DNA of 32,000 bases from Candidatus Brocadia sp. (GCA_021650915.1 CP091279.1:1470001-1502000); one strand, 5' to 3'. Shown: positions 8,468-11,298, numbered from the stretch's first letter. Notes: generated from the letters alone by a model not told the origin. A program made the numbers and translations.

Positions 8468-8584
8468 GCTGGTTCAATCGTCCACGATTGAACCGGAACG
8501 GTTGGCATGTTTCAAGATTGACACTTATTCAGAACGCACCATACCGTGCAAAACATCCGGTTCAATCTACAAGATTGAACCAGC
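8468..8584 (+). repeat. REPIN-like 117-bp repeat, copy 1
   Basis: Starts with GCTGGTTCAATCGTCCACGATTGAACC (a 10-bp-stem hairpin) and ends with GGTTCAATCTACAAGATTGAACCAGC (a second hairpin). The 12-nt termini are inverted repeats of each other. Confidence 0.9.
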
Positions 8585-8698
8585 ATAAGTAGGATACATT
8601 GCTTAATCCAATACACATACGCCTCTTCGGTCCTCATGCTGTCGTGCTTTACCCATAATTGCATCACGCACCTGATCCAGTAATTTAGGTTTGGGCAT
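8585..8698 (-). pseudogene. N-terminal stub of an integron-type tyrosine recombinase (frameshifted and truncated)
   Basis: The minus strand reads MPKPKLLDQVRDAI, then after a frameshift VKHDSMRTEEAYVYWIKQCIL. This follows the N-terminal SAM-like domain pattern of IntI-like integrases. The reading frame ends exactly at the edge of repeat copy 1. Confidence 0.5.
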
Positions 8699-8836
8699 AA
8701 GAGTTCCTTTTCGTTATGAAAAAACTATTTTATTGCACTATTTTGGTAATTTAAGGTATAGTACCGGCAAAATATTCGTGGCCCTTATTATATGCCTAAA
8801 TAGCCGTATAATAAGGCACCTGTAAACGTATTATAT

Positions 8837-8872
8837 GTACTAATAGCCGTAAAATAAGACGGCTATTAGTAC
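8837..8872. promoter_or_regulatory. Perfect 14-bp-stem palindrome immediately upstream of the membrane-protein ORF
   Basis: GTACTAATAGCCGT (8837-8850) pairs with ACGGCTATTAGTAC (8859-8872) around an 8-nt loop, 9 nt before the ATG at 8882. A second palindrome, CCTTATTATA/TATAATAAGG, lies at 8782-8815. Confidence 0.4.
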
Positions 8873-8881
8873 GGCTAATTC

Positions 8882-9691
8882 ATGTTAGATTTCATAGGAT
8901 ATTGCTTGAGTATCAATACTAAAATAGAAAATTGGCCTATAGATGTGAGTCTGTTTAGCGTAGGTTTTTTGTCATTATCAGTAGTATATGATTATGGGTA
9001 TTTCACATATTTAGGATTTAGTTTTTCTGAAGCGCCCACTACTATTTCAGATCATGTGCGATCTTCCTTGGTCTGGCTTCCAACTCTAACAATTGCAGTT
9101 CTAGCAATATTTATATATGAGTCTGCAATGAAAAGACTTGAAGGTGGGATGTCTGAAGAAGAACTAATAACAACCTCTCCAACACCGAAGTTTACAAAGT
9201 GGTTTCGGGCGTCACCTGCATATTTGATAATAATAATTGCAGTAGCAATTCCTATCCTATGGTTTGCTGGAATTAAGCCTCCTTTGCGAGCACAACAGTT
9301 TTCGTTAATCATATTTTGGTTTTTATTTCATAATTGGGTATATAGTCATCCAAATATTGTTTCAAAAACCAGTTTGAAAATATATTTAATTGGCCGCTGG
9401 TTGCCTGCAATTGTAATATATATTGCATATACTGGAGCAATATCCGCTGAAAATACAATAGAGCTACACAAGAATAACTATAAATTAGTTTTATCTAATT
9501 CCACTATTGAGGTTAATTTGCTTCGCACATTCCAGAGTTACTTTCTGGTTTGGAATAGTTCTAAACATAATTATGAATTTATAAGTTCTGCTTTAATTAA
9601 AAGCTATGAACCAGTGGATAAGCCAGAACAAAATAAGAAATCTAACAAACATATCCAGCCGACGCCAAAAAGCGGCGCGGCTGATAAGTGA
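8882..9691 (+). CDS. Hypothetical polytopic membrane protein in an AT-rich segment
   Basis: 269-aa ORF with about 6 hydrophobic helices and a hydrophilic K/P-rich tail. No family was recognised. The local composition is visibly more AT-rich than neighbouring genes. Confidence 0.55.
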   Translation: MLDFIGYCLSINTKIENWPIDVSLFSVGFLSLSVVYDYGYFTYLGFSFSEAPTTISDHVRSSLVWLPTLTIAVLAIFIYESAMKRLEGGMSEEELITTSPTPKFTKWFRASPAYLIIIIAVAIPILWFAGIKPPLRAQQFSLIIFWFLFHNWVYSHPNIVSKTSLKIYLIGRWLPAIVIYIAYTGAISAENTIELHKNNYKLVLSNSTIEVNLLRTFQSYFLVWNSSKHNYEFISSALIKSYEPVDKPEQNKKSNKHIQPTPKSGAADK

Positions 9692-9856
9692 CGTTAACCT
9701 GAAAAGAGCATGTGCAAGAAAAATGACCCTTAGAACTTTCATCAAGCGTCGACTTGATTTAAAACCATATCCCGAAAGAATCCGGTTTCGCTAAAGAAAA
9801 GAAGGCTACCTCATTACATTACTTTGTTAAAAAACGTTTGTGAAAAAATATTCCAG

Positions 9857-9973
9857 GCTGGTTCAATCGTCCCCGATTGAACCGAAACGTTTGGCATTTT
9901 TCAAGACTGGTACCTGTTCAGAACGCACCATACCGTGCAAAACATCCGGTTCAATCTACAAGATTGAACCAGC
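9857..9973 (+). repeat. REPIN-like 117-bp repeat, copy 2
   Basis: Same termini and hairpins as copy 1. Substitutions are concentrated in the central region. Confidence 0.9.
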
Positions 9974-9989
9974 CAAGGGTGTAAAACGT

Positions 9990-10044
9990 CTGGTTCAATT
10001 GTTCGACTGAGCGCCCACGACGAAGCCTGCAAGTTTGAACCAGC
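9990..10044 (+). repeat. Degenerate 55-bp mini-variant of the repeat
   Basis: CTGGTTCAATTG...CAAGTTTGAACCAGC. The ends pair with each other, and the right end is identical to the right end of copy 5. Confidence 0.6.
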
Positions 10045-10101
10045 TTGGGCATAGATATGTTTTTCTGAACCAGTATTCGCATGCAGCATTTCCCTTGCGA
10101 T

Positions 10102-10290
10102 TTATATCGCAACCGGCCAATCAGGATCATATCTGGCATGACAGCTTGGGCAGATAAGGATGATCTTGCAGGTCTCTTTTGTTATCCGTACAAATGACGT
10201 GTGAAACCCATCTTCATACCCGCAATTGGGGCATTTGTGGAGTTCCTGTTCTATTTTTATGGATACGGGTTTTGGTGTCTTAGTTTCCAA
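10102..10290 (-). CDS. Small zinc-ribbon protein (62 aa)
   Basis: Has a CPNCG...CPSCH four-Cys pattern and a TTG start preceded by AGGAG. It sits between two repeat copies. Confidence 0.45.
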   Translation of the reverse strand: METKTPKPVSIKIEQELHKCPNCGYEDGFHTSFVRITKETCKIILICPSCHARYDPDWPVAI

Positions 10291-10336
10291 ATGTTTGCTC
10301 CTTTATTTGCGGTTTATGTTACTGTTGATGGTTTGT

Positions 10337-10453
10337 GCTGGTTCAATCGTCCACGATTGAACCGAAACGTTTGGCGTTTTCCAAGATTGTTGCTTGTTCA
10401 GAACGTGCCGTACCGTGCAAAACATCCGGTTCAATCTACAAGATTGAACCAGC
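10337..10453 (+). repeat. REPIN-like 117-bp repeat, copy 3
   Basis: Full-length copy ending 27 nt from the stop codon of the RAYT gene. Confidence 0.9.
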
Positions 10454-10480
10454 CTGGAGCATGAAATATCCCCCTTGTTT

Positions 10481-10984
10481 TTACCCATAGACACTATCCA
10501 GATCCAATAAACACTCGTCACTGTTTGCCGAGGAATAAACCCAGTATGAGGCACTTCTCACATATCCCTTTCTTACAGGATTTTGTTCAACATATTTCGC
10601 CTTTTCCCTATAAAACTCTTCACCGGCAATCAACTCCGGCATATTTGTCTTTTGCCAGAACTGGTAGTTTTTATTTTCTTCAAAGAGCTTTAGTATCTTT
10701 GGTTCAGTTGCCAGGATGTTTTTCTTGAGCGCTTTGGATGTGAATGTTTTAAAGTCTCTGACAAATCCAATCATATCGTCATTCTTTACTATCAAATGGA
10801 TATGATTCAGCATAAAGACCCAATGGTAGATTTTTAGCCCCTTATTTTTCTGGCAATATCTGAGAGAATCCAGAAGGATATCCCACCGGTTGTGCCTGTC
10901 AAGCAGATAATACCATCGTTTCACGGTAAAGGTGAGAAAATAGATTCGCTGGTTTAGTTCTTTATTTATACGAATGGATGGCAT
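10481..10984 (-). CDS. REP-associated tyrosine transposase (RAYT; IS200-like Y1 HUH transposase)
   Basis: HUH motif in MLNHIHLIV and a C-terminal YVEQNPVRKGYVRSASYWVYSS tyrosine motif. A GGAGGTG Shine-Dalgarno precedes the ATG at 10984. The extra 17 codons in the ORF track (to 11035) are read-through of repeat copy 4. Confidence 0.85.
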   Translation of the reverse strand: MPSIRINKELNQRIYFLTFTVKRWYYLLDRHNRWDILLDSLRYCQKNKGLKIYHWVFMLNHIHLIVKNDDMIGFVRDFKTFTSKALKKNILATEPKILKLFEENKNYQFWQKTNMPELIAGEEFYREKAKYVEQNPVRKGYVRSASYWVYSSANSDECLLDLDSVYG

Positions 10985-11001
10985 TTTCACCTCCTGCTGC
11001 A

Positions 11002-11118
11002 GCTGGTTCAATCGTCCACGATTGAACCGAAACAATTGGCGTTTTTCAAGATTGGCGCTTGTTCAGAACGTACCGCACCGTGCAAAACAGATGGTTCAAT
11101 CTACAAGATTGAACCAGC
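11002..11118 (+). repeat. REPIN-like 117-bp repeat, copy 4
   Basis: Full-length copy starting 17 nt upstream of the RAYT start codon. Confidence 0.9.
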
Positions 11119-11181
11119 CAAGATGAGGGTTTTGGTGTCTTGTTTTCCAAGTATTTGCTCCTGCTGATGCTGCTGAGTTGT

Positions 11182-11298
11182 GCTGGTTCAATCGTCCACG
11201 ATTGAACCAAAACGGTTGGCATTTTTCAAGACTGGTGCCTGTTCAGAACATACCGTACCGTGCGAAACGTCTGGTTCAAACTACAAGTTTGAACCAGC
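11182..11298 (+). repeat. REPIN-like 117-bp repeat, copy 5
   Basis: Full-length copy. The right hairpin carries a compensatory double substitution (GGTTCAAACT/AGTTTGAACC). Confidence 0.9.

Follow-up and report, generated by a model that had tools for sequence, protein, structure and literature searches.

What kind of system is formed by five hairpin-bearing repeats of identical length and the small transposase-like gene among them is the question raised by positions 8468-11298 of a 32,000-nt stretch from Candidatus Brocadia sp. (GCA_021650915.1, CP091279.1:1470001-1502000), which as a whole is referred to as the window in the following. The locus is very probably a 'REPtron', that is, a presumably low-copy gene for a class-2 Y1 HUH endonuclease, namely a tyrosine transposase associated with repetitive extragenic palindromes (REPs) and abbreviated RAYT (also TnpA-REP), situated among its cognate REPs.

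The repeats are all intergenic and lie in direct orientation on the plus strand within 2.8 kb, and each of them measures exactly 117 nt, at the positions given in an earlier, sequence-only reading of the same DNA (Table 1). Their boundaries are sharp, since the similarity between copies opens at GCTGG and closes at CCAGC, exact to the nucleotide in all five. The 5' hairpin of each copy is formed by GGTTCAATCG-TCCN-CGATTGAACC and the 3' hairpin by GGTTCAATCT-ACA-AGATTGAACC, with 10-bp stems at both ends and 12-nt terminal inverted repeats, and the two hairpins of a 117-mer stand in inverted orientation, which bears out the doublet of inverted REP-like hairpins that had been proposed. Nine matches to the terminal pattern GCTGGTTCAATC-N5/6-GATTGAACC are present in the window as compared to none in 100 shuffles, and folding of the copies as single-stranded DNA, a check that the sequence-only reading had called for, gave z-scores of -4.7 to -6.5 relative to shuffles. 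Pairwise identities among the copies range from 85.5 to 92.3%. As had been described, the substitutions are central and the hairpins nearly invariant: 23 of the 26 variable positions fall into the central 64 nt, one into the left loop, and the other two compensate each other (T>A/A>T) in the 3' stem of copy 5 (Fisher P = 9e-5).

Copies 3 and 4 bracket an open reading frame (ORF) of 167 aa with the reported clearances of 27 and 17 nt. Judged by curated hidden Markov model (HMM), motifs and predicted fold, this ORF encodes a REP-associated tyrosine transposase, in agreement with its earlier designation as an HUH/Y1 protein. The protein passes the NCBIfam equivalog NF047646 (REP_Tyr_transpos, 'REP-associated tyrosine transposase') with 90.5 bits (cutoff 80) and matches Pfam Y1_Tnp at 23.3 (cutoff 23), but fails the IS200 model NF033573 (17.1 bits, cutoff 55). 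Key residues are N60-H61-I62-H63 (with H61 and H63 as the HUH pair), W110-Q111, and Y131-VEQ-N135-P136; the catalytic residues are kept across 41 aligned homologues, with N60, H61, W110, Y131, N135, and P136 invariant and H63 conserved in at least 90%. NHIH, WQ, and YVEQNP make up the class-2 (RAYT) signature, whereas class 1 (IS200) carries Y---Q (Quentin et al. 2018, Table 1, PMC6006769). The sole significant relative in a sequence search of the Protein Data Bank (PDB) was Escherichia coli TnpA-REP (4ER8), aligned across the Y---NP motif, and the same structure was the top PDB match of the AlphaFold2 model (pLDDT 89.9) in Foldseek (E = 8.9e-9, TM 0.70), followed by the TnpAs of IS200/IS605 at TM ~0.5. 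Compared to its orthologue on the metagenome contig WBZY01020856.1 (L122), the gene shows a dN/dS of 0.078, indicative of purifying selection. A single copy is present in the 32-kb window. As copy 4 lies only 17 nt upstream of the start codon, transcription of the RAYT gene must begin in or beyond this copy. An outward promoter in the element itself (TTGAAA-N17-TTCAAT, minus strand) was considered and discarded, as none of the copies showed a promoter-like site in a consensus scan and the subfamilies do not conserve the motif.

The host can be assigned to Brocadia, and thus to the anaerobic ammonium-oxidizing (anammox) Planctomycetota, by two matches. Positions 4056-14220 of the window are 99.95% identical to contig LAQJ01000071 of GCA_000987375.1, which we take to be Ca. 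Brocadia fulgida, and the M16 peptidase gene beside the locus shares 78% DNA identity with Ca. Brocadia pituitae (AP021856). The former assembly, in which the exact RAYT protein is found on one contig, has been counted among anammox genomes (PMC10156729). The sequence-only reading had suggested that a host outside the Proteobacteria would make this a distinct family. While the host does lie outside that phylum, the protein falls inside the recognized RAYT family, and many of its 773 database homologues are already named 'REP element-mobilizing transposase RayT'.

The association of RAYT gene and hairpin, regarded in the sequence-only reading as the hallmark of such transposases, recurs in every homologue locus examined. 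Twelve loci were inspected, the window (Brocadia, query protein) included, with protein identities of 54-98% to the window protein: the metagenome orthologue L122 (98%), Scalinduaceae L104 (82%), Brocadiaceae L128 (78%), the unassigned metagenome contig L129 (78%), Nitrospirae L101 (74%), Cloacimonadota L124 (72%), Syntrophaceae L120 (68%, partial, cut by the locus end), Patescibacteria L127 (67%, on an 812-kb contig), Nitrospirota L033 (64%), a second Brocadiaceae RAYT (L123, 59%), and the unassigned metagenome contig L130 (54%). Family hairpins adjoin the RAYT gene in all twelve, on both sides wherever both flanks are present (L120 on one side only). The direct orientation of the flanking doublets had been called unusual, a view that does not hold, as the same doublet-RAYT-doublet layout is found in L124, L128, and L129 and resembles the E. 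coli REPtron with its flanking bacterial interspersed mosaic elements (BIMEs; PMC3333891, PMC6006769). Owing to the internal inversion of each doublet, the REPs on either side of the gene nevertheless face in opposite directions.

These hairpins keep the outer stem GGTTCA/TGAACC and a TGY loop, and their inner four pairs covary (ATCT/AGAT, ATTT/AAAT, GGCT/AGCC, GGTT/AACC, AAGT/ACTT). Among 72 distinct hairpin 23-mers, gathered without a pairing filter, stem pairs 7-10 each show 12-24 double-sided changes, and pairing amounts to 90.6% as compared to 79% in shuffles (0 of 500 reach this value) and no more than 48% with the partner slid; since the search pattern dictated the outer six pairs, these are uninformative. 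The most distant RAYT, that of L130, is accompanied by a foot of GGATCA...TGATCC, itself a compensated change. Between phyla, the RAYT genes have reached saturation at their synonymous sites (pS 0.74-0.89). The non-coding hairpin has nonetheless hardly changed, which indicates that it is constrained by recognition.

If the unit is oriented by its loop, a REP of this family reads GCT, hairpin (TGY loop), and a tail with TTT at about +7 to +9, the hairpin being a perfect stem of 10-12 bp (GGTTCA-NNNN / NNNN-TGAACC) with a loop of 3-4 nt. In Brocadiales doublets, the left hairpin (loop TCCN) agrees with this unit in its foot and has a tail of like kind (GAAACRTTTGG), so that a Brocadiales doublet consists of two non-identical REPs (loops TCCN and TGY) arranged tail-to-tail about 65 nt apart. 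This arrangement fits the definition of a BIME or REPIN (a doublet of inverted REPs), and the Brocadiales doublet of 111-118 nt is accordingly a REPIN/BIME-like non-autonomous element. Relatives outside the planctomycetes (Nitrospirota, Syntrophales, Desulfobulbaceae, and others) mostly carry single 'double-foot' hairpins (GCTGG...CCAGC).

Dispersal of the doublets, the absence of which the sequence-only reading had named as a refutation, is observed in sister genomes only; in the 32 kb covered of the genome under study, there are five copies, all at this locus. A genome scan for the terminal hairpin pattern returned at least 120 matching stretches, and the counts given here refer to the matches listed. 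Their loops are almost all TTGYA or GTCCNC, a uniformity that identifies the matches as homologues rather than chance hits. A RAYT is encoded on four of the 120 hairpin stretches among the matches listed; repeat stretches therefore far outnumber RAYT genes, which argues for non-autonomous spread of the repeats. The pattern lies on at least 11 stretches of the metagenome-assembled genome (MAG) S40-1 and, in four further MAGs of the Brocadiales type, on at least 8 of DeepCast, at least 7 each of E14 and NC_1799, and at least 6 of SRP323723. Full doublets occur on a subset of stretches (33 in all loci, window included), and in genomes of the Brocadiales type they are spread across numerous contigs, where a RAYT is hardly ever close by, with lengths of 111-118 nt, one of 93 nt, and a short form of 63 nt, and with central spacers that differ from subfamily to subfamily. 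The short form (L012, L025, L060, L073, L079, L107) has the right hairpin GGTTCAGGC-TRCAA-GCCTGAACC with a compensated inner stem, and as four of these six are followed by a right flank of ATAG, the true ends may reach a few nt past GCTGG...CCAGC. An attempt to count copies via spurious ORF calls across the element gave one weak match. Brocadiaceae MAG S40-1 (L039) and the 'Roizmanbacteria' MAG P6-15 (L109) share an identical 116-nt doublet with identical 12-nt flanks, which is probably a binning artefact and calls for caution with some of the hairpin matches attributed to the candidate phyla radiation (CPR); L127, on its 812-kb contig, is unaffected.

How the transposase might act on these elements can be proposed by homology to E. 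coli TnpA-REP and the TnpA of IS608. RAYT would bind the folded hairpin on single-stranded DNA and cleave nearby, plausibly at C^T just outside the GCT foot, whereby Y131 would form the 5'-phosphotyrosine link and H61, H63, and N135 would hold the metal ion. By rejoining the strand elsewhere, the enzyme may copy or move doublets and cause local rearrangements between them. The candidate cleavage site is suggested by a CT dinucleotide that 50 of 66 flanks contain no more than 6 nt beyond the doublet end (flanks partly non-independent, as they include orthologues and subfamilies) as compared to a background of 25%, which matches the C^T beside REPs at which E. coli TnpA-REP cleaves (PMC3333891). 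A pyrimidine excess is seen just outside both doublet ends. The pyrimidine-rich left flank had also been considered as reverse-complement ribosome-binding sites, but the bias is symmetric at both ends and better described as CT enrichment.

Table 1. Features of the REPtron locus and its immediate surroundings (positions counted from the first nucleotide of the window)
Feature	Coordinates	Strand	Remarks
REPIN-like doublet copy 1	8468..8584	+	Left REP 8468-8494, right REP 8559-8584; starts 24 nt past the stop of the HGD-D gene
REPIN-like doublet copy 2	9857..9973	+	Left-hairpin loop TCCC in place of TCCA
Solo long-loop REP variant ('mini')	9990..10044	+	55 nt; outer stem GGTTCAAT...TTTGAACC, ~30 nt inserted in the loop
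62-aa zinc-ribbon ORF	10102..10290	-	TTG start, AAGGAG ribosome-binding site; weak Zn-ribbon matches
D2a	10262..10302	+	5' end of the Zn-ribbon ORF with ribosome-binding site; opens the duplicated block that runs through spacer and copy 3
REPIN-like doublet copy 3	10337..10453	+	27 nt downstream of the RAYT stop codon
RAYT / TnpA-REP gene (167 aa)	10481..10984	-	GGAGGTG ribosome-binding site upstream of ATG
REPIN-like doublet copy 4	11002..11118	+	17 nt upstream of the RAYT start
D2b	11122..11162	+	Relic of the Zn-ribbon ORF start with ribosome-binding site, 85% to D2a; followed by spacer and copy 5
REPIN-like doublet copy 5	11182..11298	+	Carries a compensatory exchange of A and T in the right stem; the M16 peptidase gene has its 3' end 16 nt away

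Of the systems described so far, the REPtron of E. coli K-12 (tnpA-REP, 4ER8; Ton-Hoang et al. 2012, PMC3333891; Messing et al. 2012, PMC3479197) resembles the present locus in its single Y1 HUH gene of ~165 aa with inverted REP pairs on both sides, in being the best PDB match by both sequence and fold, in the shared Y---NP and WQ motifs, and in the C^T sites beside its REPs, to which the CT dinucleotides here correspond. It differs in that protein identity is only ~20%, the Brocadia REP is a perfect 10-12-bp palindrome without bulge and GTAG tag, the Brocadia spacer is longer (~65 nt), and the host is an anammox planctomycete. With the REPIN-RAYT systems of Pseudomonas (Bertels and Rainey 2011, PMC3116915; Bertels et al. 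2017, PMC5581495), the locus has in common the ~100-120-nt doublets of two inverted REPs with conserved ends, variable spacer, and extragenic location, doublet loci that far outnumber the RAYT genes, and a RAYT under purifying selection; those systems, however, are described as vertically inherited and are best documented in Gammaproteobacteria (RAYT groups 2 and 3), whereas the present clade is found in several phyla with essentially one hairpin. The motifs NH[IV]H / WQ / Y[IV]x[QN]NP are also those of TnpA-REP subclasses 2.4, 2.6, and 2.7 (Quentin et al. 2018, PMC6006769), a comparison made by motifs only, and perfect-palindrome REPs are likewise found in the REPtrons of Stenotrophomonas and Marinomonas (Corneloup et al. 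2021, PMC8266576). These class-2 systems further share the 'double-foot' single hairpins, here seen in the non-planctomycete relatives, but use the tag GT[AG]G in place of the GCT(G) found here.

GTAG/CGTC-tagged REPs have been reported from eight phyla, Planctomycetes included (Di Nocera et al. 2013), subclasses 2.4, 2.6, and 2.7 from non-proteobacterial phyla together with 'double-foot' REPs (Quentin et al. 2018, PMC6006769), and a TnpA-REP group using perfect palindromes by Corneloup et al. (2021, PMC8266576). Bertels et al. (2017, PMC5581495), who stressed vertical inheritance, saw flanking repeats in abundance chiefly with groups 2 and 3. A literature search on RAYT/REPIN in Planctomycetes or anammox bacteria returned no paper describing such a system in anammox bacteria, nor did the literature searched contain a description of the GGTTCA hairpin family, its missing GTAG tag, its cross-phylum conservation, or the two-type anammox doublets.

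Several observations weigh against a REPtron and are best considered together with the local history of the locus. The window REPs lack the canonical 5' GTAG/CGTC tetranucleotide by which REPs have been defined (PMC3733652, PMC3333891) and have GCT preceding the foot instead. No further copy or REP hairpin was found in the remaining 29 kb of the window, and a metagenome scan with the central motif of the window subfamily returned one 1.9-kb contig, which is the orthologous locus L122. With a divergence of 8-15%, the copies give no sign of recent activity. At the orthologous site of the complete B. pituitae genome, the Zn-ribbon ORF, a spacer, one 141-nt element, and the M16 peptidase gene follow each other without a RAYT. 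Finally, a block of ~190 nt, which comprises the initial 29 nt of the Zn-ribbon ORF and the ribosome-binding site of the latter as well as spacer and doublet, is found in duplicate, at 10262-10453 and 11122-11298, with RAYT and copy 4 between the two, so that not every local copy needs transposition.

From these data, an explanation can be drawn up according to which the five copies arose by local recombination or segmental duplication around one resident element and form a locus-bound array without any RAYT-catalyzed transposition. It accounts for the duplicated block, of which B. pituitae has one, for the five copies in one orientation within 2.8 kb, and for a subfamily found nowhere else in the metagenome scan. 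We nevertheless consider it unlikely, as the flanks of copies 1, 2, and 4 are unrelated, the boundaries are nucleotide-exact in all five copies, and the same family is spread over many unrelated contigs of sister genomes; moreover, REP-REP recombination is itself a reported activity of TnpA-REP (PMC3333891).

Copy 5 is orthologous in position to the single element of B. pituitae. The latter (L046, 141 nt) has a 27-nt loop insertion in the right hairpin, and the 55-bp mini-variant of the window, which proved to be real, is a solo copy of this variant with 88% identity to the right end of the element (4564-4623), although on its own it folds weakly (z = -1.6). Either the RAYT segment entered together with the block duplication, or B. 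pituitae lost its RAYT by recombination between the direct blocks; in both cases, a part of the cluster stems from local rearrangement and not from independent insertions. The zinc-ribbon ORF, conserved beside the single element of B. pituitae, is a neighbor rather than a demonstrated component.

A further explanation is that gene and flanking hairpins constitute an autonomous insertion sequence (IS) of the IS200/IS605 type that spreads horizontally, with the 117-mers as its miniature inverted-repeat (MITE) or palindrome-associated (PATE) transposable element derivatives, i.e., a selfish element and not a domesticated RAYT. IS200/IS605 TnpAs (IS608, ISDra2) indeed have the same catalytic fold and recognize subterminal hairpins as single-stranded DNA, homologues at 60-82% identity occur in at least five phyla, and the L033 gene sits IS-like inside one GCT-hairpin...hairpin-AGC pair. 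The RAYT is present here and absent from the orthologous site in B. pituitae, and L122, the orthologous locus in a related strain, is a mosaic: its identity to the window is 96% from copy 4 across the RAYT into copy 3, but only 84.5% in the remainder of copy 3, in the Zn-ribbon ORF, in the mini, and in copy 2, which suggests recombination within the REPtron. Taken together, an IS nonetheless appears distinctly improbable. IS200/IS605 elements carry Y---Q, are multi-copy, and often possess tnpB, whereas the window protein has Y---NP, scores far under the cutoff of the IS200 HMM (17 bits vs 55), and is closer in fold to 4ER8 (TM 0.70) than to their TnpAs (TM ~0.5), and no tnpB partner lies beside the gene, the neighboring ORFs being those of the Zn-ribbon protein and the M16 peptidase. 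Clusters of homologous proteins reside mostly on 1-2 contigs each, rarely 4-5, the gene accompanies only the small fraction of hairpin stretches given above, and the saturation of synonymous sites between phyla implies that transfers were not recent. Neither phages nor plasmids were supported as vectors of cross-phylum spread: 2.9 million viral contigs gave two hairpin matches and no RAYT homologue, and plasmid relatives were limited to four PLSDB records with 36-40% identity, all non-mobilizable, in a database that hardly covers these phyla.

That the hairpins are host regulatory structures (terminators, mRNA stabilizers, or small RNA) and the Y1 gene incidental is hardly credible, since, although the minus-strand right hairpin followed by ATGTTTTG scores terminator-like four times and a T-run follows copy 5 on the plus strand, no Rfam match was obtained at the gathering threshold or at E <= 1, a near-identical hairpin across phyla is not expected of host terminators, and RAYT homologues have these hairpins beside them at all loci inspected; regulation could still be a secondary role of the hairpins.

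The surroundings of the REPtron hold further features. Between copies 1 and 2, a frameshifted stretch of ~40 codons (8585-8713, minus strand; MPKPKLLDQVRDAI...RTEEAYVYWIKQCILL) shows a weak likeness (Phage_int_SAM_4, 18.4 bits, below the cutoff of 27) to the SAM-like domain found N-terminally in tyrosine recombinases of the integron/phage type. It breaks off precisely where copy 1 has its right boundary, as though it had been truncated at this point. It is followed by a pair of 30-nt direct repeats (8786-8815 / 8829-8858) and a 269-aa ORF (8882-9691, plus strand) of low GC content (~37%) and membrane-protein look, with no family match and no homologous sequence in the 8-kb B. pituitae stretch at the orthologous site. 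Upstream lies a PhdYeFM-type antitoxin gene (7012-7296, plus strand), beside which no obvious toxin ORF was identified. Three other transposase genes within the 32 kb, namely a DDE_Tnp_1 transposase with a DruA-like N-terminal part (2054-3421, plus strand), an IS66-family transposase with an RNase_H_2 domain either fused to it or preceding it (4114-5877, minus strand), and an IS110-family transposase (14507-15769, plus strand), mark the region as rich in mobile elements. At 19779-21757 (minus strand), a group II intron is recognized by the Rfam models for D1-D4 (103.5 bits) and for domain V/VI (48 bits), with a reverse transcriptase/maturase ORF at 19965-21263 (RVT_1, GIIM). A pair of 35-nt direct repeats with 80% identity (24271-24305 / 24664-24698) within a TPR-repeat protein gene (24120-25394) probably reflects the protein's own repeats.

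Summed up, the locus holds a genuine RAYT with REPIN-like doublets, a known type of system in an unusual host and with a somewhat atypical REP, and as such it leaves the concept of REP/RAYT systems as it was. Repeats of this kind and the resulting rearrangements are a practical concern in the assembly and binning of anammox genomes. REPIN/RAYT systems serve as a model of long-term, vertically inherited 'replicators' in genomes and have been studied almost only in Gammaproteobacteria, a known range that is widened by a RAYT clade with a cross-phylum hairpin in anaerobic, mostly uncultured bacteria such as small-genome Patescibacteria and slow-growing anammox bacteria. Beyond this, we tentatively put forward, as a possibility somewhat short of being probable, that the locus belongs to an undescribed cross-phylum RAYT clade whose REP (GCT-GGTTCA-NNNN-TGY-NNNN-TGAACC) has stayed almost unchanged despite saturated synonymous sites, whose hosts comprise anammox Planctomycetota, Nitrospirota, Syntrophales, Cloacimonadota, and Patescibacteria, and which has formed two-type REPIN-like doublets in Brocadiales. 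If so, REP/RAYT systems with dispersed doublets would be no proteobacterial, strictly vertical specialty, and the natural covariation of enzyme and hairpin, with inner stems ATC, ATT, GGC, GGT, and AAG and a GGATCA foot at 54% protein identity, would provide a natural series of hairpin/enzyme pairs for studies of recognition.

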